Counted from the stretch's first letter, positions 7,989-62,752 are shown. The stretch is DNA of 64,000 nt from Flavobacteriales bacterium (GCA_026418175.1 JAOABX010000008.1:40111-104110), one strand, 5' to 3'. Notes: generated by a model from the sequence alone, not told the origin. A program made the numbers and translations.

Positions 7989-9167
7989 CTAAAAAAAATT
8001 CAATGTGGGAAAAGAACGCTTCAGAATTTTATCGGGAGGTACATTCAGCTTTTTTTGAAGAATAGTGGCATATATACTTCGAAAGTCAACGGTATGAATT
8101 AAGTCTCCATCGTCTAGTTTTTGCAAATCAGGGCTTTCATTCAAAATTCCGGCATTTTTTAATTGGCCGTTGATGATGAATATGTTATTGGCTGTACCAT
8201 GGTCAGTTCCTCCGCTAGCATTCTGCGCCACTCTTCTGCCAAATTCGCTAAATGTTAGAATGGTAACATCGTTAAGTTTGTTATTATTTTTCAAATCCAT
8301 CACAAAGGGATATATGGCATCATTGTATTGTTTAAGAAGTTGGGCTTGTGTTCGCAATTGGGCAATATGTGTATCAAAACCACCTATTTCGCAGTAATAA
8401 ACAGATGATTGTGTATTTGAAATAATTAGCTCTGCAATGGTTTTCAGATGTTTACCTAACTCAGTTCCTGGATATTCTTCCCGGCTTTGATAAATTTTAC
8501 TTTGTGCGTAAATATAATTGGCAGCTGATTCTGAATCTGCCAGTGTTTTATATAAATAATTTAAATTTTCATTGGTTGAGTCGTAAGGTATTTTTTGGGT
8601 ATTAAGCAACTTGAAAGCTTGATAAAATGTTTCTGGTTTAGCAACGGCCAATGCATTGAACGTTTCTCCTTTCATTGCCAGGCTTAATGTATCATCCACT
8701 TCCATGGCGGTATAAATAGGTTTTCCAGCATTACACTGAGCATCCAGGTATCTTCCAAGCCAGCCGCTTTGCCAATACTCATCAGCATTACTGGCAGTGT
8801 GCCAAATATCCATGCTTCGAAAATGTGACCTATCAGGATTAGGATAACCAACATTATTAATTATGCTTAACCACCCTTGATTGTAAAGTTCACGAATTCC
8901 TTCCAGCGAGGGATGCAAACCCATTTCATCAGTAAGTTTTAAAACCTGATTTTCTGCAATAGCTATCGAAGGCCTATTTTTGTAATACAAATCGTTTTTG
9001 TAAGGAATTACTGTATTTAATCCGTCATTTCCTCCAGAAAGCTGAATAACCACCAAAATCTGGCCATTGGTTTGTTCAGTGTTTCCTTGAAATGCTTTTA
9101 CAAAACCGGGAATAAACAGGCTGGTACTGGCAAGTCCGGTATTTTTTATAAATGATCTTCGGTTCAT
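7989..9167 (-). CDS. DUF1501 family protein (Tat-exported)
   Basis: NRRSFIK Tat motif; VIQLSGGNDGLNTVIP, RSHFRS, GGFDTH, FSEFGRR, GTDHG. Confidence 0.9.
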   Translation of the reverse strand: MNRRSFIKNTGLASTSLFIPGFVKAFQGNTEQTNGQILVVIQLSGGNDGLNTVIPYKNDLYYKNRPSIAIAENQVLKLTDEMGLHPSLEGIRELYNQGWLSIINNVGYPNPDRSHFRSMDIWHTASNADEYWQSGWLGRYLDAQCNAGKPIYTAMEVDDTLSLAMKGETFNALAVAKPETFYQAFKLLNTQKIPYDSTNENLNYLYKTLADSESAANYIYAQSKIYQSREEYPGTELGKHLKTIAELIISNTQSSVYYCEIGGFDTHIAQLRTQAQLLKQYNDAIYPFVMDLKNNNKLNDVTILTFSEFGRRVAQNASGGTDHGTANNIFIINGQLKNAGILNESPDLQKLDDGDLIHTVDFRSIYATILQKKLNVPPDKILKRSFPTLNFF

Positions 9168-9182
9168 ATACTTTTTCTTGAT

Positions 9183-10562
9183 TTAACACAATTGGTATTC
9201 GGGTTGCCTGAGTAATTGCAACACAAAATGGAAAATAAGTTCTTCCCTGTATTCTGTTGTTTTTATTTCTAAAGCTTCAGCCAAATTATTACGAGGTTGA
9301 ATGAAGTAGTTAGTTAGCATTTTCTTGATTTGATCTTCGGGAACTGAGGCCATCATGGCAAAAAGATATTTCATATCAGTTTTTGCTTCAAACTGACGAA
9401 AGCGGTTTCCCAGACGCTGGGTTTCTGCCTGGTCTTTGTCTTGTATTTCTATATTTGAATTTAGCAGAATAGCATCTCCTAGTTTAAGTCGAAAGAGTAG
9501 GGTGGAGGTGTCAATCCAGGGCTTACCATCTTTCCATCCTGCTACGTTGGGTGGGTGCCCCAAAACCTGCCCCAAAATTCGTTGCGCAAACAACATGGCC
9601 TTATCATCTTTGAATTCGATTCCGAAAGCTCTTCGAATTCCGCAAATCAATTCCAACGGAGATTTAATTTTGGTCCCTATATTTTCTTCCTCATAAAACC
9701 ATTCAGATTCTATTACTTCGCGTATCAAACGACTGATATCATAACCGCTGTTATAAAATACTTCAGCTAGTGTTTCGATTTTTTTCTCATCCGGATGCTC
9801 ATTTATAAAATATAAGTAAAATTTTCGGGTGATGAATGTGGCGGTACGTCGGTCATTGAGAAGTATATTGATAATATCTTCTCCGGTAAAATTTCCTGTT
9901 TTCCCAAGAAATTGCTTTTCTCCGAAGTCGTGATCCTTTTCATCTACATAAAAATTTCCTTCTTCATCATACCTCCAACCGGTAAACGCCCGTGCTGCTT
10001 CTTTAATATCTTGTTCAGTATAATTTCCTCTTCCCAGGGTATATAATTCCAATAATTCCCGGGCAAAATTTTCATTGGGATGATCCTTCTTGTTATTTAC
10101 ATTGCTTAAAAATTCAAGCATGGCCGGGTCTTTTGCGATGGCATGCAAAAGTTCTTTATAATTACCCAATGCCATTTTTCTGAGTTTGTTAATATGTAAT
10201 TGCATGGCATACGCATAAGGCACAAAACATGCAAAATGATCGTGCCAGAAAAGTGCCATTTTTTCTCGCAATTGCTCTTTGCTGAATGTAAGTATATTTA
10301 CCCAGGCAATATTCAAATCCATCAGCTCTTCCAGATTGATTTTTCTGAATGCTATTCGCTGAGCTTTGCTGAGCCGGCCTTTTTTCCTCCATAATGAAGC
10401 CTTTGGTTTACTCGCAATATCCAGAGGTTCAAAGGAGTAAGAACGATGAAATATTTCTGTTATTAGTTCCTTTTTATTTAGTTTTTCAAGCCTTGGAAAC
10501 TCACTAATATCGGGGCCGAACCCAAAGCGCCAGCTAACATGTGCGATATGCCGAATATCCAT
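9183..10562 (-). CDS. DUF1800 family protein
   Basis: RFGFG, QLREKMALFWHDHF, PNENFARELLELYTLG, AARAFTGW, PPNVAGW, PEYQLC. Confidence 0.9.
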   Translation of the reverse strand: MDIRHIAHVSWRFGFGPDISEFPRLEKLNKKELITEIFHRSYSFEPLDIASKPKASLWRKKGRLSKAQRIAFRKINLEELMDLNIAWVNILTFSKEQLREKMALFWHDHFACFVPYAYAMQLHINKLRKMALGNYKELLHAIAKDPAMLEFLSNVNNKKDHPNENFARELLELYTLGRGNYTEQDIKEAARAFTGWRYDEEGNFYVDEKDHDFGEKQFLGKTGNFTGEDIINILLNDRRTATFITRKFYLYFINEHPDEKKIETLAEVFYNSGYDISRLIREVIESEWFYEEENIGTKIKSPLELICGIRRAFGIEFKDDKAMLFAQRILGQVLGHPPNVAGWKDGKPWIDTSTLLFRLKLGDAILLNSNIEIQDKDQAETQRLGNRFRQFEAKTDMKYLFAMMASVPEDQIKKMLTNYFIQPRNNLAEALEIKTTEYREELIFHFVLQLLRQPEYQLC

Positions 10563-11008: not shown

Positions 11009-12544
11009 TTAATTATTAAATTTTGGATTTTTGAAAATGGTCATAATTTCTAATCCATCCACCGTTAAAGAATAAATTTTTTCTGTATAATCATATACCG
11101 GATGAAACCGATAATTGGTTACAAAGTATTTGCACGATAAATAATCTGTTAGTTTTAACTTTTGTAGTTCTTCGTTAGTAAACCAAGCCAAATTGTATAA
11201 ACCGGGAGGTGTTTCATACTGTACTACAATTGGTTTTTCTTTTAATTCATAAATTAGGAATTCCCAAGCATACCTATAGCTTAATCCCCAATAATCCATC
11301 TCATAACGAAGGTGGATGTTTTTACCGGCCAATGCATTAAAATATACATATTGATGAGGGTTGTTTTTAATCATAAAATAACCGGTTACAAGTATTTGCC
11401 AAGTGAAAGCCCCATAAAAAAAAGTTTTAGTTAAAAATTCTATTTTTCCTGTTGGTGTTCTTTTAATAACCTTTTTTATTAACATCAGCATTATAAGTAT
11501 CATGGCCGGATAAATGAAAAATAAATGTCGCCATTCATCATAAATATGTGAACCTAAAACAATCACCATAAGCCAGGGTATAAAAATCCAAACAATCAAC
11601 AAAGCTTCTTTCCATTGTGATTTTAAGAATATTCCTGGTTTTTTTATAAAATCAATAATTGATATGAAAGTGCCGGAAAGAAAAAGGATAGTCCATAATA
11701 TTGGAACCGAAATACCTATCCAAACGGGTACATAATACCAAGGCAAATCAGCCGGTTTGATGTATTTTCCCATAAACAGTACCGGGTCATCAAATGGAAA
11801 ATGGCTCATCATTTTAAACGCTTCTTGCACATGAAATATGGGGTTAGGCCATAGCACAGGAACACACAGATACACACAAAGCGGATAAAGGATAATATAT
11901 AATCCCAGCCATTTAAGTTGAAGCAACCGCAAATTTCCGTTTAATATATTCAACAGAAAAAAACTTCCTATTATAAAAGGAACCATTATTCCCAATATAC
12001 GCATACCGAATAATGCTCCTGAAAACAAAGAAAGCAACAATAAGTTACGGGCTCTAGGTTTTTGAATAAATCCAATTCCATAATACATGCTGATAATAAA
12101 AAATGAAAGGAAGGGAATGTCTTTAGAATTGTAGAACCCATGGGCATAAATTCGGGGTGTCAAAATTAAAATTAATATGCCTAGTAAGGCTAGTCGCCAG
12201 TTACCAACAATGCGTAGAGCCAGCAAATACAAATAAACAGCCCCAATCCAAAAAATTAAGAAATTGAGCAAATGACGGGAATAATAAATGGTACGGCCGG
12301 ATGTTAAATGCAACCATTTTTCAGGTAAAACATTTAATAATTCACAAGTGGAATTGTGATATTTGTTTTGAATGTTAAATAACTCGGCACTTTTTCCGGT
12401 TACATAATCATAACATAACAAGCCCATTTCACGTTGCATAGGCTCGTCCCAAGAAATACCATATTTTTTAAAATTCAATATTCCAATTAATAAAAATATT
12501 CCAAAAAAAACTGCAGGAAATAACTTGTATGTTTTTACTTTCAT
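11009..12544 (-). CDS. GT-C fold membrane glycosyltransferase (ArnT/PMT-like)
   Basis: Polytopic protein with an N-terminal loop WDE motif, YNSKDIP, PWYYVP, YDEWRH, DYWG. Confidence 0.75.
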   Translation of the reverse strand: MKVKTYKLFPAVFFGIFLLIGILNFKKYGISWDEPMQREMGLLCYDYVTGKSAELFNIQNKYHNSTCELLNVLPEKWLHLTSGRTIYYSRHLLNFLIFWIGAVYLYLLALRIVGNWRLALLGILILILTPRIYAHGFYNSKDIPFLSFFIISMYYGIGFIQKPRARNLLLLSLFSGALFGMRILGIMVPFIIGSFFLLNILNGNLRLLQLKWLGLYIILYPLCVYLCVPVLWPNPIFHVQEAFKMMSHFPFDDPVLFMGKYIKPADLPWYYVPVWIGISVPILWTILFLSGTFISIIDFIKKPGIFLKSQWKEALLIVWIFIPWLMVIVLGSHIYDEWRHLFFIYPAMILIMLMLIKKVIKRTPTGKIEFLTKTFFYGAFTWQILVTGYFMIKNNPHQYVYFNALAGKNIHLRYEMDYWGLSYRYAWEFLIYELKEKPIVVQYETPPGLYNLAWFTNEELQKLKLTDYLSCKYFVTNYRFHPVYDYTEKIYSLTVDGLEIMTIFKNPKFNN

Positions 12545-12661
12545 ACCCAAGGTTCGTAGTTCGAAGGTACCTATTTGTAATTGAAATTAAAAGATTTGAG
12601 AAACGGATTAAACCATTTGTAAATTATAGAGTCATAAATAACGAAAATTACAATGTAGCAC

Positions 12662-14917: not shown

Positions 14918-16117
14918 TCAGTCAATTAATTTTTCATCTTCTTGAAGGAGGTGTTGACGAATAAAAATGGAATAAAACAAGCAAAAGAAAACCACACCAC
15001 TTTGCCGGTTCAGGATGTTTTCGCCCAGCATAATAATAGAAGAAAGTACTAAGAATGAGAGAAAAAGTAAATTGTGGTATTTCCAAGCAACAATCAATCC
15101 GGCTATGAGGATGAGAATCAAAAAAAGAAAGCCCGGTAAGCCAAGCGATAAAAGATAGTCAAGGTATTGGTTATGGGTGTTATAAGCATGGTTTTTAAAA
15201 ACTAAATCATTGCCATAGCATTCATTTAATTTTTTTTGCGTTTCAGTAGGCCCAAAGCCCAAAGGCAGAGCTATCGGAATCAGTGAAATAGCACATTTAC
15301 TAATTACCGTACGAACTTTGAGGGAATTACTGGCTGTTTGATCTTTTTTGAATGAAACAAATTCAGCTGTGCGTGGATTAACAGAAAACATACCCCCCAG
15401 TAATGCAAGTAAGGTTATCATTGTTACAACCTTCCAAACAATAGATAGTTGTTTATTTAGAAAAATCATCATTACCCATGAAGCAGCACCAGCAATCCAT
15501 ACCAACCGGGCTGCCAGAAAATATGTAAAAAAGAATAAAATGATAGCAATGACAATGTGCAGATGATTGATTGATTTACTGAAATTAGGATATGCATAAA
15601 AAAGAAATAATATAGAATAAACAGCCATAAGGGAAAGATAAGTAGGATGAATGTGAATCAGCTGATTGATTTCGTTTCGATATCTGAATATAAAATCATG
15701 CTGTTCGATTGCTGTTATTTTAAATCCGAACAATAAAAAATAAATACTGGTAGCAACAGCTAATGCTGCCATACTATATGCCAATATTCGATGAAACAAA
15801 AGAAGATGAATAGATGGTACAATTTTTTTTAAAAACAAAATGCATAGTGGAAATACCCAAAAACTATGTGCTTTTTCTACCGCGAACCAATCTGTTTTAT
15901 TTTGACTTACCCATGCTTGTATGAGTAATAAAAAAAAAGGAGAAGCGAGCAACATTCCCCAGAAATATTTTTTATCATCGGTTTTTTTAAAATCTAAGAG
16001 AAACAAGGAGAGTACCCCCCAAATTGCAATTAAATACGTTACCCATTGCTGTGGGATAATGGGTATAGCAGCTAATAAATAAGTAAATATTCGATGGATG
16101 TTAACTATAAACTGCAT
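14918..16117 (-). CDS. O-antigen ligase / Wzy_C family membrane protein
   Basis: About 12 TM helices; HPTYLSL, R..I in the periplasmic loop, GFG, YNTHNQYL. Confidence 0.8.
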   Translation of the reverse strand: MQFIVNIHRIFTYLLAAIPIIPQQWVTYLIAIWGVLSLFLLDFKKTDDKKYFWGMLLASPFFLLLIQAWVSQNKTDWFAVEKAHSFWVFPLCILFLKKIVPSIHLLLFHRILAYSMAALAVATSIYFLLFGFKITAIEQHDFIFRYRNEINQLIHIHPTYLSLMAVYSILFLFYAYPNFSKSINHLHIVIAIILFFFTYFLAARLVWIAGAASWVMMIFLNKQLSIVWKVVTMITLLALLGGMFSVNPRTAEFVSFKKDQTASNSLKVRTVISKCAISLIPIALPLGFGPTETQKKLNECYGNDLVFKNHAYNTHNQYLDYLLSLGLPGFLFLILILIAGLIVAWKYHNLLFLSFLVLSSIIMLGENILNRQSGVVFFCLFYSIFIRQHLLQEDEKLID

Positions 16118-17229
16118 ATTATGCCGGCATGTTTTTCTAAAAAAGCAGCCATTTCCTGATGAAAACGCTGGCGATTAAACTTTAATGCCTGTTGTCTGAT
16201 TTTATTAGGATCAAATTGGCTTTGTTGATTTTCAAATCTGTATATAGCATCAACGATGCTTTTTACGGTTTGGTGATGAAAGAAAATGCCGTTCTTTTCA
16301 TTGTGTACGGTTTCCAATACGCCGCCTTTTCCAAATGCAATTACCGGAGTGCCGCAGGCCATGGCTTCTACAGGGGTAATACCAAAATCTTCTTCGGCGG
16401 CAAAAACAAAAGCCTTGGCACGTTGTAAATAATATCGAAGTACTTCGTAGGTGTCGTACTTTATCATTTCAATGTTGGAAGTTGAAATGCTTTTTATTTT
16501 TTTCCAATCAGGCCCATTGCCAATGATGATGAGTTTTTTATCCGGCATTTCAGAAAATGCTTTAGCAATAAGGTCAATTCGTTTGTAGGGCACTAACCTA
16601 GATGCTGTAACGTAATACGATTCTTTTTGTCCAGAAGGAACAAAAAAGTCGGTATTTACCGGTGGATAAATAACAGTTGATTCTTTATGATAATTTTTTT
16701 TAATCCGATTTTGAATATACTTTGAATTAGCGATAAAGAAATCCACATCTGTTGAAGTTGCAAAGTCCCAGTTGCGAATATTTCGCATCAGGGGTTTGGC
16801 AGCCAGACGCTTCCAGCCTTTGTTTAGCCCATGATCGCTAATATATTGCTGACGCATGTCCCAAATATATCGCATGGGCGTATGGCAATATGAAATATGG
16901 ATTTGCCCAGGGTGTTTATGTACACTTTTTGCTACTGAATGTGAAGATGAAATAATTACATCAAACCCCTGGGTGCGAAAAGCACGAATGGCTCGGGGAA
17001 ACAATGGAAAAAAATATTTGTAATTTTCTTTAATGCCTGGAATCAATTGTAAAAATGAGGTATGCGGTTTTTTCCCAAAAATAAATTCTTCCCGGTCTTC
17101 GTCAGACAGAAAGTCCATCAAAGTAAATAGGGTTATATTCTGGTTGCGAAGTAGATACAAGATTTCCCGGAGCACTTTTTCTGAACCTCCGGGGGTAATT
17201 AGCCAATCGTGTATAACTGCAATTCGCAT
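16105..17229 (-). CDS. GT4 glycosyltransferase (WbaZ-like)
   Basis: HDWL..GGSEKV, YCHTPMRYIW, EEDFGITPVEAMACGTPVIA. Confidence 0.9.
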   Translation of the reverse strand: MRIAVIHDWLITPGGSEKVLREILYLLRNQNITLFTLMDFLSDEDREEFIFGKKPHTSFLQLIPGIKENYKYFFPLFPRAIRAFRTQGFDVIISSSHSVAKSVHKHPGQIHISYCHTPMRYIWDMRQQYISDHGLNKGWKRLAAKPLMRNIRNWDFATSTDVDFFIANSKYIQNRIKKNYHKESTVIYPPVNTDFFVPSGQKESYYVTASRLVPYKRIDLIAKAFSEMPDKKLIIIGNGPDWKKIKSISTSNIEMIKYDTYEVLRYYLQRAKAFVFAAEEDFGITPVEAMACGTPVIAFGKGGVLETVHNEKNGIFFHHQTVKSIVDAIYRFENQQSQFDPNKIRQQALKFNRQRFHQEMAAFLEKHAGIICSL

Positions 17230-17265
17230 GGTATGTTATTCGCGTGCTAAAAGTACAAGTAAAAA

Positions 17266-18282
17266 TCACAATTTCTGCAAAGCGCGCCATAATTGAAGCC
17301 CTTGAACTGCCATGGTGAATTTTTGATGAGGAGCCGGCGATTTGATATATGATAAATTATATGTATTGATACGTTCTGCCAGGGTAGCTGCAGCATTTGA
17401 TTGATGTATTTCAAAAAATTCTGCCCGACCGGAATACAATTCCCGATGAACAGGAATGTTTGAAATGAGTACTGGGCATCCATGCTGTATAGCTTCAAGC
17501 ACAGGCAGGTTGTACCCTTCATAAAATGATGCGCTTATTAATACCGATGCTTTGCTGTAAAGTAGGCTTAGTTCTTCTTCTTGAATATTATTTAAAAGCT
17601 GAATACGTGGATGCGTTTTTAATTTATAAATCAGGGCTTTGTCTGTATGAAAGTTAGAAGAAAATCCACCTACAATGACCCATTGCCAATCATTAGAACA
17701 CTTTAGAAATGCATCCAACATCAACCGATAGTTTTTTCGCGGTTGAATGGTTCCCACAGAAAGTATAAATTTTTCTCTGGTGTGTGTGTTTGAAACAATT
17801 TCAGCAGTATTATATATTACCTGGATGTTAGAAGAAGGTATTTTAAAACTACAACAAATTTCATCTGCCATAGTTTCGCTTACTGTAAAGATTCGAATTG
17901 CTTTGTTAGCAATTTTCGGAATAAGCCAATTATAATATGCTGAAAACAGAGGATGAAATGTATTTGGATAATGCCGAAATGCTAAATCGTGAATAGTAAT
18001 AACCTGTGGTTGATAATTTAATGGAGCTGTATTGCAAAAATTTATCAGCAACGGATGATTTTGTTTTTTCAAGTATGCGGGAAGTGACCATTGTTCCCAA
18101 GCGTGTCCAAAAAATTTTCCGGTTTGTATAGTCTTCCAGTCGGTTGATATAATTGATTTTGATGGAGTAACAATTTTAATATCATCATCCTGTTGCATCA
18201 AGTATTTACTGAACCTCCGGGCAAATTGTTGAACACCGGTAATAGGTTGCGTAAGGAAACGACCATTAATACGTATCACCAT
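17266..18282 (-). CDS. GT4 glycosyltransferase
   Basis: INGRFLTQPITGVQ, TIHDLAF, VGTIQPRKN, EGYNLPVLEA. Confidence 0.88.
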   Translation of the reverse strand: MVIRINGRFLTQPITGVQQFARRFSKYLMQQDDDIKIVTPSKSIISTDWKTIQTGKFFGHAWEQWSLPAYLKKQNHPLLINFCNTAPLNYQPQVITIHDLAFRHYPNTFHPLFSAYYNWLIPKIANKAIRIFTVSETMADEICCSFKIPSSNIQVIYNTAEIVSNTHTREKFILSVGTIQPRKNYRLMLDAFLKCSNDWQWVIVGGFSSNFHTDKALIYKLKTHPRIQLLNNIQEEELSLLYSKASVLISASFYEGYNLPVLEAIQHGCPVLISNIPVHRELYSGRAEFFEIHQSNAAATLAERINTYNLSYIKSPAPHQKFTMAVQGLQLWRALQKL

Positions 18283-19043
18283 AGAAACGGAAATACGGCT
18301 TTACGTTGTTGGGGATAATCGGCAAATTTTTCTTTGTACCACTTGTGGTGAGCAATAGCCCTAGGTACCAGATTTGCAAATGTCCATACAAAAAATACCA
18401 ACCCCGGAATACTCCAAGTTAGAATAGCAAAGCCCAGCCACTCAATAATTTCACCCAACAGATTCGGGCAACTAATATATTCAAATAGCCATCCATGTGG
18501 AATCTTATAATCGGTTTCACCGGGCTTTCTTAAATTAATCAACCGTGTATCTGCTATCCAATTTATAGCCATACCAGTAAAAAAAATAATGAATCCTAGA
18601 ATAAATCTTGGATCATACAACCATGCTATGGTGTAGGAAGAAAACCAGGTAAAATGCATACCTAGCAGTGAACCGTTCATTATGTTGAATCCAATAGCCA
18701 TTAATGCAATTACAAGCGGCATTTTTTTTCCTTGAGTACGAATACGCAACGGAAAAATAAAACTCCGATTGAGGTAATGTAATGTAAACAATGCAACCAT
18801 AATCCACGAGGGCCATGAAAGCTGAAATCCAATTTGTGTAAAGTAGCTATATAAGACCAACAAAACAGTGAATTCCATAATAAACCATCCCAATTTATTA
18901 TCAATCATTGGTCCCCATCCTTCACGAGTATGCCTACCGTAAGGTGCAGTTTTAATAAACAGGTAAAAAAAAGTAATAATTCCAATACCCATCCAAATTA
19001 GGGAAATCCAAAGGTAGTTTTCGTAACTTATTAATGCTTTCAT
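18276..19043 (-). CDS. 3-oxo-5-alpha-steroid 4-dehydrogenase (steroid 5-alpha-reductase) family protein
   Basis: APYGR, WFIME, HYLNRS, LRKPGETDYKIPHGWLFEYISCPN.LGEIIEW, NLVPRAIAHHKWY (SRD5A1/2-DET2-type motifs). Confidence 0.9.
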   Translation of the reverse strand: MKALISYENYLWISLIWMGIGIITFFYLFIKTAPYGRHTREGWGPMIDNKLGWFIMEFTVLLVLYSYFTQIGFQLSWPSWIMVALFTLHYLNRSFIFPLRIRTQGKKMPLVIALMAIGFNIMNGSLLGMHFTWFSSYTIAWLYDPRFILGFIIFFTGMAINWIADTRLINLRKPGETDYKIPHGWLFEYISCPNLLGEIIEWLGFAILTWSIPGLVFFVWTFANLVPRAIAHHKWYKEKFADYPQQRKAVFPFLW

Positions 19044-19046
19044 GGC

Positions 19047-20024
19047 TTAAATATAGCCGTTTTGTTTAAACCATTGCATGGTGTCGTTCACGGTTTCTTG
19101 AAGTGGTCGGGGTGAAAAGCCAAGTTCACGCTTTGCTTTTTCAGAACTTATTTTAGTATTTCCATGCCGAAGAATATGTAATGATTCCTTTGTAAATAAA
19201 GGTTCTTTGCCGGTGATAAGCGAAAATAGTTGTACAAAGGGTAACAAGGCATACGCCACCCAAAAAGGTAGAATAATAGCTTTTCGTTTTTTTCCCGTGG
19301 CAAGATTCACCATTCGAATCATGTCCAACATCGTAATATATTCTCCCGACATTAAATAACATTCTCCTGTTCGGCCTTTCTCCAAAGATTGTATAATTGC
19401 AGTGGCCACATCCCGGTTATCAACAAAATCAAATCCTCCACGAAAAATAGCCGGAACCCTTCCTTGGTAAATATCAATGAATGCTTGCCCCTGTAATGAT
19501 GGTTTATGATCGGGCGGTCCTATCAGCGAAGTTGGATTGATTACAACTACATCCAGTCCTTTGTTTACATAACTTAAAGCTAACAATTGGCTGTCGCGTT
19601 TTGACCGATCGTATGAAAATGCATTGTCATGGGCCAGTTCCCTGGTTTCATCAAGTACTTCATGCAAAGGTTCCGGATGAAAAGCATGAATAGAAGAGAG
19701 GTGAATAAATCGCTTTACACCACATTTCAATGCTGTGTCAAGTAACCGTTTTGTGCCTTCCACATTGGTTTGATGAACCTTACCATCTGGATCTCCGTTC
19801 AGTGAAATGATTGCAGCGCAATGAATGACAGCATCGCAATCTTCCAATAATTTTTCTAACACCGGGTAATCCATCATGGACCCCTGAATAAAAGTAGCCT
19901 GAATACCTTCTAAAGCTCGTGTATCCTTATGTATTAAAAGTTTTAGTGTATCGCCACGCCTTTCCAATTGTCGGGCAATTTCAGAACCCAAGTGGCCGGA
20001 CGCCCCGGTAATAGCAATTTTCAT
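19047..20024 (-). CDS. Extended SDR, NAD-dependent epimerase/dehydratase (HpnA/3-beta-HSD-like)
   Basis: TGASGHLG, HCAA, NVEGT, SS, YDRSK catalytic motif. Confidence 0.85.
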   Translation of the reverse strand: MKIAITGASGHLGSEIARQLERRGDTLKLLIHKDTRALEGIQATFIQGSMMDYPVLEKLLEDCDAVIHCAAIISLNGDPDGKVHQTNVEGTKRLLDTALKCGVKRFIHLSSIHAFHPEPLHEVLDETRELAHDNAFSYDRSKRDSQLLALSYVNKGLDVVVINPTSLIGPPDHKPSLQGQAFIDIYQGRVPAIFRGGFDFVDNRDVATAIIQSLEKGRTGECYLMSGEYITMLDMIRMVNLATGKKRKAIILPFWVAYALLPFVQLFSLITGKEPLFTKESLHILRHGNTKISSEKAKRELGFSPRPLQETVNDTMQWFKQNGYI

Positions 20025-20130
20025 AAAAGGGTTTTTAAAACGTTTTTAAATTACCCAAACCTAACTAAAATTCTTTTTCCGAATAAATCTGTTAAAAGTG
20101 TTAACTTTGCATACCTTTTTAGTCTATTCT

Positions 20131-21135
20131 ATGATTCAAACTGATATCTGCATTGTTGGAGCCGGACCTGTTGGGCTCTTTGCAGTATTTGAAGCCGGCT
20201 TGTTAAAAATGCGTTGTCATTTGGTTGATGCATTACCGCAAGTAGGTGGCCAGCTTTCTGAAATTTATCCCAAAAAGCCAATATATGATATTCCAGGCTA
20301 TCCGGAAATTTTGGCCGGTGATTTAATTACTAACCTGATGAAACAAATTGAACCGTTCAAGCCTACTTTTACCTTGGGTGAACGGGTTGATTCTTTTGTG
20401 CGTAACGATGATGGAACCATTATTGTAACAACCAACGAAGGCACAACAATTTCATCCAAAGTATTGGTGATAGCTGCCGGATTGGGCTGCTTTGAGCCCC
20501 GTAAGCCGGAAGTAAAAGATTTGGAAAAATTTGAAGGGAAAGGTATAAGTTACATGATTTTAGATCCTGAAAAATATCGGGGTAAACGGGTAGTGCTGGC
20601 TGGCGGTGGTGATTCTGCCTTGGATTGGGCCATTCACTTATCGGAAATTTGTGGGGAATTATCACTGGTGCATCGTAGCGAAACATTCCGCGGCGCACCT
20701 GATTCAGCGGCCAAAGTATTTGAATTAGCCAAAAAGGGTAAATTAAATTTGATATTAAATTCAAATGTTACAGCTGTTAGCGGTAATGGACATTTGGAAT
20801 CTGTAACGATCACGAATAACCAACAAGAAAACACCCAACTCTTTGTAGATAATTTTATTCCATTGTTTGGTTTAACTCCTAAACTTGGCCCAATAGCCGA
20901 ATGGGGGTTGAATATTGACAAAAATTCCATAGTTGTAAATGTGGAAGATTATTCTACAAACATTCCGGCAGTTTACGCTATCGGCGATATCAATACTTAT
21001 CCCGGTAAATTGAAATTAATTCTGTGCGGATTTCATGAAGCAGCACTGATGGCTCAAAGTGCTTTTCGTTATGTATATCCTGACCAAAAACTGAGTTTTA
21101 AATACACTACCGTTAACGGGGTAAATGCCTTTTGA
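20131..21135 (+). CDS. Ferredoxin--NADP+ reductase (TrxR-type)
   Basis: GAGPVG, GGQLSEIYPKKPIYDIPG, GGGDSALDW, no CxxC; TAACTTTG -7 motif at 20102-20109. Confidence 0.9.
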   Translation: MIQTDICIVGAGPVGLFAVFEAGLLKMRCHLVDALPQVGGQLSEIYPKKPIYDIPGYPEILAGDLITNLMKQIEPFKPTFTLGERVDSFVRNDDGTIIVTTNEGTTISSKVLVIAAGLGCFEPRKPEVKDLEKFEGKGISYMILDPEKYRGKRVVLAGGGDSALDWAIHLSEICGELSLVHRSETFRGAPDSAAKVFELAKKGKLNLILNSNVTAVSGNGHLESVTITNNQQENTQLFVDNFIPLFGLTPKLGPIAEWGLNIDKNSIVVNVEDYSTNIPAVYAIGDINTYPGKLKLILCGFHEAALMAQSAFRYVYPDQKLSFKYTTVNGVNAF

Positions 21136-21467
21136 TGAAAGACCTAATTGAAGTAACTATTATCGACAAAGACGGAACATCAAATACCTTACAAATTCCT
21201 ACAGGTATTTCGCTTAGCTTGATGGAAGTATTAAAAGGAGAGGGCTATCCGATTTTGGCTACTTGTGGTGGAATGGCACTTTGTGCTACCTGCCATGTAC
21301 AAGTTATTAAAGGTTATGAAAAGTTACATCAACCCGAAGACCAGGAGTGGGCTATGCTTGATACATTACCTAATTATACACCGCAAAGCCGCTTGTCGTG
21401 CCAGCTTAAAATTGACGAAACCATGGATGGTATGGAATTCCGTGTGATGGGTGAAGATAATGTGTAG
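21135..21467 (+). CDS. 2Fe-2S ferredoxin (adrenodoxin-type)
   Basis: CGGMALCATCH and SRLSCQ; ATG overlaps the FNR stop codon. Confidence 0.92.
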   Translation: MKDLIEVTIIDKDGTSNTLQIPTGISLSLMEVLKGEGYPILATCGGMALCATCHVQVIKGYEKLHQPEDQEWAMLDTLPNYTPQSRLSCQLKIDETMDGMEFRVMGEDNV

Positions 21468-21564
21468 GCAATAATTTTTTTTCACCATCGTTTTTTTACT
21501 AATTTCCTTAACAATATTTCATAAAGTGAATGGAATCACTATTTTTGAGGTGAAACATAAGCCT

Positions 21565-22308
21565 ATGAATAGCAAACATCTACTTGTATTTTCGCTGGGG
21601 ATTTTGATAATACTAGGTTGGACATCATGTTCAAAAACTACCATTTACACCGGCAGCAGCCAAACCGGTGTGTTTTATAATAAACTTGCATTGGGTATTC
21701 CTGGGGCAGGTAATTCAGGATATAGCCCCAAGCGTAGATACAAAGATGGTAAGCAAATCGTTCCGTTACCCATATATCATACAGTAGGAGGTTCGTTCCT
21801 TATGGGAATCGATAAAGATATTCAATATGGCTATCCCGGTGGAGGAATTCATTATGACTTGCGTCTTACAGCGGCTAAATGGAGTAATGAGGGAACATTT
21901 TCCATTAACTTTCCGCTCACCGTGGCAGTAACTTATCACAACGATTTTGTACAATATCCTAATCCGGCACTGGTGCCTCAAAAGAAAACAAATTTCACTG
22001 CGGAAGTACCCATTAACTTTACTTTTAATTTTGGACATTGCACAACACCCAAATCTCTTCAAAATTTTGGTGTTTTTTTTGGAGTAGGGTATGCATTTGC
22101 ATACTTGCCCAGCGGACGTACCGGTACTTACATATTTCCACAGGGTACAACGTACAATCTACCCATTGGTCACGGCCCGCATGCTCGGGTAGGTATTCGC
22201 TTCAGAACCGGATCACTGTCTTGGCAAACCTTTGGAAGTTTTCTTTATAACATTTATACGCCTTCTCACTTAGCCGGTGTAGGGTTAGGACTTACATTCG
22301 GTAAATAA
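21565..22308 (+). CDS. Hypothetical protein, probable outer-membrane beta-barrel
   Basis: Lipobox-like WTSC, alternating beta-strand pattern, C-terminal GVGLGLTF. Confidence 0.6.
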   Translation: MNSKHLLVFSLGILIILGWTSCSKTTIYTGSSQTGVFYNKLALGIPGAGNSGYSPKRRYKDGKQIVPLPIYHTVGGSFLMGIDKDIQYGYPGGGIHYDLRLTAAKWSNEGTFSINFPLTVAVTYHNDFVQYPNPALVPQKKTNFTAEVPINFTFNFGHCTTPKSLQNFGVFFGVGYAFAYLPSGRTGTYIFPQGTTYNLPIGHGPHARVGIRFRTGSLSWQTFGSFLYNIYTPSHLAGVGLGLTFGK

Positions 22309-22417: not shown

Positions 22418-23671
22418 TTAGTGTTCGTTGTACACTATCCGATATAAGTTATATAATAATAAATAATCTAACCCATTAAACAGAGCTCCCTGCTGGTCTT
22501 TTGAGCCGTTGCGGTGATTAGGATGAAACCAACGGTTTTCACCACTCCATCCGGGAGTATTTGTACAATGGGTTGACATAAAACAAGGGCCATGGCTTGG
22601 TGCATTATGAAGCATTTCTTCAAACATGGATTGATAGAAAACCAAATTACGCTTTCTAAATAAAGCATCTACTAATAAATAAATTTCCATACCAGCACCT
22701 TCACACCATTGTGTAAAGCGATTATACGAGGGATAACCAATTACACTACACAAGGCTAATTGCATACCCATATTTACTTCGGTTTGCGTAGGATTATTTT
22801 TTTCATAGGGAATTTGCATCAAGGTTGACCAAATAGGCCTTCCGTTTATTAAAGACCCCCAGTTATGATAATTTTTTCCGGTAATTATTTTGCCAATACG
22901 GGCAATTGCAAACGCATATCCGGTGGCAGAATAACCGATAGGTACCCGGTTCCCATTGGGATCTAAAATTTGCCAATCGGTATTCCGGAAATAGCTAATG
23001 ATTTGGTGGCATTTAGTTTTTATTTTTTCTTTTAATGCTATGCCGTCAAGCGATGAAGTGAGTGTATCCGGTAGTAATTGATTAGAAATAGCTGCTGCCC
23101 AAAGTATATATATCGCTTGGTCTTGACTCATCATATTACCATCTTCTATGCCGGTACGGCAAACTTCGCCTGATTTTACGCAATGCATGCCCTGCAATTT
23201 TGCTGCCAGGGCAGTAGGAACATCATCTCGCAATAAAAAACCGTCTTCCCTCGGATTTTGTCCATACTTTAATTTTGAAGCTTTATCCAAACGTGATAAC
23301 GCATACCAGGCTTTTGAAAGTTCATCGCGTATCAGCGATACATTTTTTTGTTCTTTCCATTGTAAATAGTATTCAGTACTAAGCCAAGCCGCATAGTGTG
23401 CCCAATGAACAGTTCCATCCATCCATTCGGCCAAACCATTTTTACCGGGAATCATACCATTTCCGCCACACAAAACCTGCATTTGCCATGCATTGTCACA
23501 ATTCATTTCCGGCCAAATTCTAGCAGCTGGCAGGCATCCGCCTTTGCCGGTATCAACTACCAAAAAACGGGTGTACAATCGTTCTTGATATTGAATTGCT
23601 TTTTCTCCGGGAGTTTGCGAAAGCAATTTCCCGATGAACATATATGTTAGAATGATGAAAAAAATTCGCAT
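22418..23671 (-). CDS. Hypothetical secreted protein
   Basis: 417-aa ORF with a signal peptide; no family recognised. Confidence 0.7.
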   Translation of the reverse strand: MRIFFIILTYMFIGKLLSQTPGEKAIQYQERLYTRFLVVDTGKGGCLPAARIWPEMNCDNAWQMQVLCGGNGMIPGKNGLAEWMDGTVHWAHYAAWLSTEYYLQWKEQKNVSLIRDELSKAWYALSRLDKASKLKYGQNPREDGFLLRDDVPTALAAKLQGMHCVKSGEVCRTGIEDGNMMSQDQAIYILWAAAISNQLLPDTLTSSLDGIALKEKIKTKCHQIISYFRNTDWQILDPNGNRVPIGYSATGYAFAIARIGKIITGKNYHNWGSLINGRPIWSTLMQIPYEKNNPTQTEVNMGMQLALCSVIGYPSYNRFTQWCEGAGMEIYLLVDALFRKRNLVFYQSMFEEMLHNAPSHGPCFMSTHCTNTPGWSGENRWFHPNHRNGSKDQQGALFNGLDYLLLYNLYRIVYNEH

Positions 23672-36262: not shown

Positions 36263-36410
36263 AATAAAAGAAATTTAAGTTGGTGCCTACTCTAAATATG
36301 GTTTTCGGCATCCCCATCTAAATCTAAGTTATATATTGTATTGAAATTAACAAAATGAATAATTTACCCCTAATGATTTATTATACTAATTATGTGAATA
36401 AATAACAAGA

Positions 36411-58045: not shown

Positions 58046-58120
58046 GGAGGAAGAGGGGACTCGAACCCCCGGCCTTCAGAGCCACAATCTGACGCTCTAA
58101 CCAACTGAGCTACAACCTCC
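58046..58120 (-). tRNA. tRNA-His (GTG)
   Basis: Cloverleaf with anticodon loop TT-GTG-GC, GGTTCGAG T-arm, G-1:C73; CCA not encoded; TATATTTG promoter at 58132-58139. Confidence 0.93.
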
Positions 58121-62664: not shown

Positions 62665-62752
62665 TGGCGGAGAGTGAGGGATTCGAACCCCCGGAACCTC
62701 TCGGTTCAACGGTTTTCAAGACCGCCGCAATCGACCACTCTGCCAACTCTCC
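62665..62752 (-). tRNA. tRNA-Ser (TGA)
   Basis: GGAGAGTTGGCAGAGTGG...CT-TGA-AA..., long variable arm, GGTTCGAATCC, encoded CCA; TACTTTTG promoter at 62758-62765. Confidence 0.95.

Follow-up and report, generated by a model that had tools for sequence, protein, structure and literature searches.

Knowledge of SRD5A-family reductases in bacteria so far amounts to one crystal structure and a gut bile-acid pathway. PbSRD5A (PDB 7C83) reduces progesterone in vitro, and in human SRD5A2 the residues Q56, E57 and Y91 form the motif that binds the substrate carbonyl (3-oxo), with NADPH contacted by N160, D164, R171, N193, E197, R227, H231 and Y235 in human numbering (PMC7815742, in excerpt). For gut Bacteroidales, adjacency of a 5-alpha-reductase (5AR) and a 5-beta-reductase (5BR) has been described (excerpts of PMC10942478 and also of PMC12345280), and the second of these sources summarizes 5AR plus 3beta-hydroxysteroid dehydrogenase (3beta-HSDH) chemistry on 3-oxo-delta4-lithocholate for their bile-acid cluster (Sato et al. 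2021). Here, we analyzed a stretch of 64,000 nucleotides from a Flavobacteriales bacterium (GCA_026418175.1 JAOABX010000008.1:40111-104110), called the window below, in which a gene for a predicted SRD5A1/2-type reductase directly follows a gene for an extended short-chain dehydrogenase/reductase (SDR) and is itself followed by two GT4 glycosyltransferase (GT) genes and a gene for a Wzy_C-domain membrane protein. With a probability of about 0.5, the sequences point to two separate modules in one operon, namely a reductive pair that would act on the A-ring of a sterol or steroid, and an unrelated glycan module. The five genes, with positions counted from the first letter of the window, are as follows.

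19047-20024, minus strand: extended SDR of the 3beta-HSD / HpnA / SdmB-like group, 325 aa (Pfam Epimerase 101.8 bits, 3Beta_HSD 62.7 bits)
18276-19043, minus strand: predicted SRD5A1/2-type membrane NADPH-dependent enone reductase, 255 aa (Steroid_dh PF02544, 178.6 bits)
17266-18282, minus strand: glycosyltransferase GT4a, 338 aa (Glycos_transf_1 70.4 bits, Glyco_transf_4 47.8 bits)
16105-17229, minus strand: glycosyltransferase GT4b, 374 aa (Glycos_transf_1 95.9 bits)
14918-16117, minus strand: Wzy_C-domain polytopic membrane protein, 399 aa (Wzy_C PF04932, 57.2 bits, cut-off 31.7)

This five-gene minus-strand run was confirmed. A reading made from the sequence alone (hereafter the sequence-only reading) had given the order and spacing of the genes correctly, with all open reading frames (ORFs) on the minus strand, a gap of 3 nt between SDR and SRD5A, an overlap of 7 nt between SRD5A and GT4a, a gap of 36 nt between GT4a and GT4b and an overlap of 13 nt between GT4b and Wzy_C; each of the families that it named (SDR, SRD5A, GT4, GT4 and O-antigen ligase-like) is backed by Pfam. 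The gene order is not due to chance, since it recurs in seven genomes of two genera despite protein identities as low as 30%. The SDR-SRD5A genes are probably co-transcribed with GT4a-GT4b-Wzy_C.

The SRD5A protein resembles characterized steroid reductases over its full length. The PF02544 match covered profile positions 1-150 of 150, far above its cut-off of 22.6 bits, and the protein aligned with PbSRD5A over residues 10-254 (237.9 bits) and with human SRD5A2 (PDB 7BW1) over residues 23-254 (162.5 bits), whereas a TECR homologue aligned with the C-terminal residues 150-254 only (54.9 bits). It is also similar in length to these two reductases (255 vs 258 aa) and shares with them the Glu, the Tyr and the NADPH-binding residues. 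When these positions were mapped by hand on ungapped blocks of the 7BW1 alignment, where chain numbering is offset by +4, we found the catalytic Glu57 and Tyr90, both invariant across 91 alignable relatives, as well as all eight NADPH contacts (N161, D165, R172, N194, E198, R228, H232 and Y236). Homologues were abundant (4925 proteins at E<=1e-10), the top named matches being from Crocinitomicaceae, Brumimicrobium, Chitinophagales and Flavipsychrobacter. A language-model look-up returned at rank 2 a 256-aa cluster that is mainly from Streptophyta, and we take it only as a lead that this cluster is DET2-like, a name that the look-up does not give. We placed 91 SRD5A proteins in a quick maximum-likelihood tree, in which 38 of the 88 inner branches stayed unresolved; the window protein formed a group of five with L009, G124, G267 and G234 (97% support in the Shimodaira-Hasegawa-like approximate likelihood ratio test, SH-aLRT), and L010 fell within an adjoining unresolved set. 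Locus L072, with a reading frame disturbed at the motif region, was excluded from the tree.

The partner protein belongs to the extended SDRs, with the motifs TGASGHLG (Rossmann TGxxGxxG, kept as TGxxGHxG) and YDRSK (YxxxK) and the Ser region all kept in 35 orthologues, and it has a hydrophobic stretch at about residues 249-272. Its two best curated matches, both over full length, were HpnA (TIGR03466, 228 bits) and SdmB (NF052578, 189.3 bits), although it scored far below both cut-offs (367.65 and 600, respectively). These nearest curated families are both tied to triterpenoids, which we counted in favor of a sterol or steroid substrate. The best PDB match was 3WJ7, a 'putative oxidoreductase' (163.7 bits) that we take to be the Gluconobacter NADPH-dependent reductase of C7-C10 aldehydes; the literature searched held no mention of 3WJ7 or Gox2253, and its matches to HpnA were unrelated. 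The next PDB matches were 2X4G (a nucleotide-sugar epimerase entry), kavalactone, cinnamoyl-CoA and dihydroflavonol reductases, and sugar dehydratases. For SdmB, a role as NADP-dependent reductase in sterol C-4 demethylation has been described (PMC10202945, in excerpt). Unlike the SdmB setting, no SdmA adjoins the window SDR, and the only Rieske gene lies on another contig.

To determine how widely the two genes occur together, we surveyed 80 related SRD5A loci from species-representative genomes and scored an SDR as orthologous when its phmmer match exceeded 200 bits. In 26 of the 80 loci, such an SDR immediately preceded SRD5A in the same orientation, and one additional locus was cut by a contig end (the upstream flank was shorter than 1 kb in three loci, this one included). 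A more distant extended SDR was located within about 450 nt of SRD5A in nine further loci, in three arrangements: upstream with a DUF2141 gene in between (L049, L050), downstream and co-directional (L055, L071) and convergent (five SAR86-type loci). Pfam annotation of four to five neighbors on each side of 15 pair-bearing loci revealed unrelated neighborhoods (DUF2130, UvrD, GH25, CLC channel, RimK, etc.). Since the pair recurs amid otherwise unrelated neighbors, the selected unit is the SDR-SRD5A pair alone. In the tree, pair-bearing SRD5A proteins were scattered over the Bacteroidota part, which fits an old SDR-SRD5A linkage that was lost repeatedly. We found no description of this pairing in the literature searched, and a conserved extended-SDR partner is not mentioned for PbSRD5A in the excerpt of PMC7815742. 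To the reductase family and the gut pathway, both already known, our data add a new element, the conserved association of the reductase with an extended SDR of HpnA/SdmB-like type in free-living Bacteroidota.

The gut 5AR-5BR-3beta-HSDH cluster likewise combines a Bacteroidota SRD5A-family reductase with a 3-hydroxysteroid dehydrogenase, and its reductases (L075-L088) carry the same active-site residues, M-E...Y, as the window protein. However, the identity between them is only 41-43%, and the assembly that holds the window is environmental and not of gut origin. In addition, the Old Yellow Enzyme gene (5BR, Oxidored_FMN), which directly follows SRD5A in gut locus L081, has no counterpart among the window neighbors, and the HpnA/SdmB-like extended SDR was found within 2.5 kb in 0 of 14 gut loci.

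Some surveyed loci showed other arrangements around SRD5A. A small DUF2141 protein is encoded beside SRD5A or its SDR in L029 and L037 as well as in L049 and L050, where its gene lies between the two. Among marine Pseudomonadota, SRD5A of the SAR86 locus L064 has a convergent extended SDR (a convergent SDR is also present in the SAR86-type loci L067-L070) and a divergent GMC oxidoreductase, and SRD5A of the OCS116 locus L060 is accompanied by a classical SDR as well as a cytochrome P450 (P450) and an acyltransferase in opposite orientation.

The two proteins together suggest a defined chemistry. The pair (module A) would reduce a membrane lipid at its alpha,beta-unsaturated carbonyl: SRD5A would pass the hydride of NADPH on to the enone C=C at its beta-carbon, with Glu57 and Tyr90 holding and activating the carbonyl, and the SDR would interconvert the adjacent carbonyl and alcohol and so set the oxidation state of that oxygen. 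On a sterol, the route would lead from a delta5-3beta-ol or a delta4-3-one to a 5-alpha-3-one and then to a 5-alpha-3-ol of the stanol type. Our confidence is high for the general assignment as an enone reductase with a carbonyl reductase, and the odds that the substrate of the pair is a steroid or sterol are roughly even; we infer both the substrate class and the order of the reactions. The likeliest substrates would be 3-oxo-delta4 sterols or steroids from eukaryotic material, not the cycloartenol-type sterol of the cell itself. GT4a, GT4b and the Wzy_C protein (module B) would form an ordinary variable surface-glycan module, of the lipopolysaccharide-core/O-antigen ligase or O-glycan type, that came to lie directly behind module A in one lineage. 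We saw no established chemical link between the glycan genes and the pair.

The glycan proteins gave less specific matches. GT4a had weak generic NCBIfam matches only, all far under cut-off, and the best PDB match of GT4b was a fragment of the mannosyltransferase WbaZ-1 (2F9F, 73.2 bits). The Wzy_C protein, for which no PDB or NCBIfam match was found, has many hydrophobic segments and is predicted to be an O-antigen ligase, a polymerase (Wzy) or O-oligosaccharyltransferase-like. We then followed the linkage through the order of the organism, which comprises 27 species genomes in one family and seven genera. SRD5A was present in 26 of them, the single miss being a genome rated 77% complete, and a GT4b orthologue in nine, adjoining SRD5A in seven and located elsewhere in two (genus g4). 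The five-gene order, scored by coordinates and tblastn on fetched loci, was found in seven of the 27 genomes, that is, in all five of genus g1 (G000, G124, G267, G481, G482) and in two of four of genus g6 (G431, G492). Identity across these genomes falls to 64-66% for SRD5A, 34-35% for GT4a and 30% for Wzy_C, and GT4a orthologues were 34-73% identical among the genomes with the shared arrangement. Of note, the SRD5A match of G492 (L111, G492:C260:8891-9649; genome 90% complete) contains one in-frame TAA, which may reflect a pseudogene or an assembly error.

Each module was also found apart from the other. G493 (g6) has the SDR-SRD5A pair with the divergent reductase, ferredoxin and 260-aa genes described below, and no GT genes downstream. 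In the sister genus g4, G234 carries GT4b (43% identity) followed by Wzy_C on another contig, where the neighbors are housekeeping genes (Ppx/GppA, sigma-54 activator, MeaB), and its SDR-SRD5A pair stands without GT genes; in G494, also of g4, GT4b and SRD5A are on different contigs. The order GT4b-then-Wzy_C is therefore common to the five-gene loci and to the separate g4 locus. Among the 15 annotated pair-bearing loci, the GT4-GT4-Wzy_C order was shared only by L010, and a co-directional downstream glycosyltransferase occurred in 0 of 13 further loci (a Wzy_C gene is convergent in L025, and a GT4 gene is divergent in L027). Because the pair stands alone in G493 and GT4b-Wzy_C lies elsewhere in G234, we consider that pair and glycan module were fused locally. 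The GT linkage, seen in two related genera only, is a lineage-specific union of the modules and is probably incidental.

These distributions bear on a second option of the sequence-only reading, in which the pair modifies a lipid carrier or acceptor for the glycosyltransferases. As in SRD5A3 with DHRSX, a polyprenol would be oxidized to polyprenal by the SDR, saturated at its alpha-isoprene unit by SRD5A and reduced again by the SDR, yielding a dolichol-like carrier for the GT4s and the Wzy_C protein or for the nearby GT-C protein. This sequence of dehydrogenase, SRD5A-family enal reductase and reductase has been demonstrated for dolichol synthesis (PMC11250103, in excerpt). The window likewise joins an SRD5A-family reductase to a dehydrogenase/reductase, next to genes for glycan assembly, and ties the pair tightly to protein types that depend on polyprenyl phosphate (Wzy_C; PMT_2 at 11009-12550); moreover, the PDB neighbors of the SDR include enzymes that reduce aldehydes and CoA esters. 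However, the window SRD5A, by its length of 255 aa and full-length alignment, is of the SRD5A1/2 type and not the longer SRD5A3-like form, and the SDR class differs as well, DHRSX being a classical SDR and the window protein an extended one. The glycan linkage, present in seven genomes, is missing in 13 of the 15 annotated pair-bearing loci and in most of the order, and a term search of a 2026 review on polyisoprenoids returned, in the excerpts obtained, no passage on alpha-saturated bacterial carriers. A check on the conservation of the linkage gave the carrier option one point, as the arrangement is not unique to this genome (seven genomes, two genera) and the option thus escaped its own refutation on that count. 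It is otherwise poorly supported, given the absence of co-directional GT genes in the 13 further loci, the lone pair of G493 and the separate GT4b-Wzy_C of g4, and we regard a dolichol-like role as improbable, with perhaps a slim chance of being correct.

A sterol or steroid pair beside an unrelated glycan module also had to be reconciled with sterol synthesis in the organism itself, which is predicted to encode a sterol route of the cycloartenol-synthase type that the sequence-only reading could not have seen. The relevant genes of its genome (G000) are the following.

Contig C2 (L007:9323-14495), one strand: oxidosqualene cyclase, 755 aa (TIGR03463, 729 bits vs 261 bits for the hopene cyclase model)
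Contig C2 (L007:9323-14495), strand opposite the cyclase: squalene synthase, 407 aa (468 bits, above cut-off)
Contig C2 (L007:9323-14495), with squalene synthase and opposite the cyclase: squalene epoxidase, 476 aa (PF08491, 251.6 bits)

The cyclase unit is divergent from the unit of squalene synthase and epoxidase. An alignment with human lanosterol synthase (1W6K) shows Y381, H449 and I453 in the cyclase, which is the cycloartenol-synthase signature (PMC4919349). In the same study, Fluviicola taffensis, the one Bacteroidota species whose lipids were analyzed, made only cycloartenol. Within the order, 17 of the 27 genomes carry the cyclase, and a class-wide sample of Bacteroidia yielded none among 388 genomes from other families; this small order, previously unremarked, is rich in sterol cyclase. 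In comparison, SRD5A was present in 39 of the 388 genomes outside the family and in 52 of the 401 genomes of the class-wide sample (~13%), and most SRD5A-bearing Bacteroidia are without a cyclase. A 4,4-dimethyl sterol, the expected cyclase product, cannot form a delta4-3-ketone, so cycloartenol made by the cell is an unlikely direct substrate of the pair. Furthermore, G267, a genome of the same genus that is rated 100% complete, has all five genes and neither a cyclase (0 candidates) nor a squalene epoxidase, which argues that the operon is retained independently of the cell's own sterol synthesis. When the cyclase, squalene synthase, epoxidase, desaturase and Rieske proteins were compared by tblastn with the 91 SRD5A loci, no match was found within the flanks of about 10 kb, and physical clustering of SRD5A with sterol genes was ruled out on this basis.

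Several observations weigh against our preferred reading. The first is the Gln of the QEY motif, which, in contrast to PbSRD5A and SRD5A2, is replaced by Met56 in the window protein and in 91 of 91 alignable relatives, gut Bacteroidales included; the changes Q56A/L abolished the activity of human SRD5A2 (PMC7815742, in excerpt). The Met variant is probably compatible with steroid reduction, because the gut Bacteroidales relatives, with their 5AR-5BR adjacency and 3-oxo-delta4-lithocholate chemistry, carry it as well. Steroid or sterol conversion was the other option of the sequence-only reading, and it was supported as regards full-length SRD5A1/2 likeness, the Glu, the Tyr, the eight NADPH residues and grouping with gut Bacteroidales, but not as regards the Gln. 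Second, steroid activity of relatives in vitro, such as that of PbSRD5A on progesterone, does not fix the physiological substrate. Third, PF02544 also matched the Caulobacter, Synechococcus and Lactococcus controls, which have no obvious steroid metabolism, and the family may therefore be non-steroid in some bacteria. Fourth, the next PDB neighbors of the SDR act on aldehydes, CoA thioesters or flavonoids, and no steroids are among their substrates.

The last two points would also suit a pair that reduces non-steroid enals or enones to saturated alcohols for detoxification or catabolism, with 2-alkenals from lipid peroxidation, chlorophyll-derived phytenal or keto-carotenoid rings as candidate substrates. 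Most PDB neighbors of the SDR reduce the carbonyl of non-steroid substrates, and genes linked to redox or NADPH recur near SRD5A in some loci, namely AlaDh/PNT-type genes or PntB with a 4TM partner within a few genes (L029, L051, L053, L064), AhpC (L040) and a nitroreductase (L014). The AlaDh/PNT neighbors could be a source of NADPH or could be there by chance; the neighbor associations as a whole are few and could be coincidental, and the closest characterized relatives of SRD5A all act on steroids. We therefore consider a non-steroid role unlikely, while giving it some weight.

The remaining points against two unrelated modules concern the operon and the sterols of the organism. The tight spacing of the five genes is kept across two genera, which could mean a functional tie between the modules. 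Among the 80 genomes with close SRD5A relatives, we found 11 strong cyclase matches and one fragment (in Chitinophagales, Wandonia and a Myxococcota-type genome, among others), vs 0 of 388 outside the family in the class-wide sample. Wandonia haliotis JCM 16083 (L053) carries cyclase and SRD5A alike, and the pair-bearing Chitinophaga strains of L032-L034 have no cyclase. The excess of cyclases hints at a link to the cell's own sterols but is confounded, because the 80 were chosen by SRD5A likeness. The only Rieske protein of the genome (344 aa, contig C55, L008:1489-2523) has as its best curated match the sterol C-4 methyl oxygenase SdmA (103.6 bits vs a cut-off of 600, N-terminal half only), and this Rieske protein tracks the cyclase-bearing genera fairly closely: it occurs in 14 of the 27 genomes, alongside the cyclase in 13. 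Finally, the 2.68-Mb genome has nine FA_hydroxylase-family (PF04116) matches (L102-L109, C22:137610-138023). Eight of these paralogues were compared with NCBIfam; seven gave only weak OlsE-like matches and one gave none. Six of the 14 Rieske matches hold one or two in-frame stops.

Taken together, such findings could be read as the pair tailoring a derivative that other enzymes would produce, by demethylation or desaturation, from the cycloartenol-type sterol of the cell, with the GT4s and the Wzy_C protein glycosylating the 3-hydroxyl to give a steryl or stanyl glycoconjugate. The genome does encode squalene synthase, squalene epoxidase and oxidosqualene cyclase; cyclase (17/27) and SRD5A (26/27) are frequent in the order, the cyclase being present in six of the seven five-gene genomes; and the SdmA-like Rieske protein and the nine FA_hydroxylase-family matches could be seen as enzymes for such tailoring. 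Sterol conjugates have also been reported in bacteria, their identity and enzymes being not known (PMC10202945, in excerpt). On the other hand, G267 keeps the five genes without cyclase or epoxidase, none of the cyclase, squalene synthase and epoxidase genes lies near SRD5A in the 91 loci, the cyclase-bearing genera g3, g4 and g5 are without GT linkage, and F. taffensis made nothing beyond cycloartenol. No P450 was found in the genome, and no ERG4/24 reductase either, the latter being a weak negative since the controls were blank too. In our opinion, a role in tailoring the cell's own sterol is quite improbable. A version in which the cyclase-rich order uses the operon for a reduced sterol and a glycan built on it, with G267 as a recent loser of sterol synthesis that scavenges sterols, appears more doubtful still; if true, the operon would be the first set of genes by which a bacterium turns its own sterol into a glycoconjugate.

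Under our preferred reading of a sterol or steroid pair with a separate glycan module, the outcome for the idea of a glycosylation pathway is mostly negative, the GT genes being a local addition to the pair. Stenols are converted to stanols in waters and sediments, and if environmental sterols are turned into 5-alpha-stanols by the pair, the bacteria that carry it would be candidate agents of this conversion. The cyclase-rich order also adds to the few sterol producers known among bacteria and offers a setting in which sterol tailoring and conjugation may be sought.

Other features surround the five genes in the window. The main ones are listed here.

20056-20063, minus strand: TAGGTTTG, candidate Bacteroidota -7 promoter element (TAnnTTTG), 32 nt upstream of the SDR ATG
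20098-21135: thioredoxin-reductase-like flavoprotein, divergent from the SDR (Pfam Pyr_redox_2)
21132-21467: 2Fe-2S ferredoxin, divergent from the SDR (Pfam)
11009-12550: PMT_2 GT-C protein (Pfam)

The SDR start is separated from the divergent flavoprotein gene by a spacer of 73 nt, which contains TAGGTTTG; this label relies on TAnnTTTG, which we take to be the Bacteroidota -7 consensus. A scan for sigma-70 promoters revealed no enrichment (18 sites vs 23.9 expected), and terminator-like sites fell within genes. The divergent flavoprotein reductase and ferredoxin (20098-21467) and the nearby GT-C gene were present as had been noted from the sequence alone. We evaluated the reductase and ferredoxin as a possible part of the system: they are divergent neighbors in L009, L010, L090 and L112 but not universally, since the congener G124 (L089) has neither within its 8-kb upstream flank and genus g2 (L097, L098) has them at a distance of about 7.5 kb, and they were treated as conserved housekeeping neighbors. 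Next to them, the ORF at 21526-22308 (plus strand, 260 aa) has no Pfam or NCBIfam match, as is the case for the ORF at 22418-23671 (minus strand, 417 aa); the 260-aa ORF adjoins the reductase-ferredoxin pair in L009, L010, L090 and L112 too.

On the other side of the operon, DUF1800 (459 aa) and DUF1501 (392 aa) proteins are encoded side by side at 7989-10562 (minus strand), and a similar DUF1800/DUF1501 pair is located upstream of SDR-SRD5A in G296 (L091). The window also contains an Rfam DUF805b RNA motif at 36284-36318 (minus strand; 38.3 bits, gathering score 35.6) and two tRNA genes, at 58046-58119 and 62668-62752.

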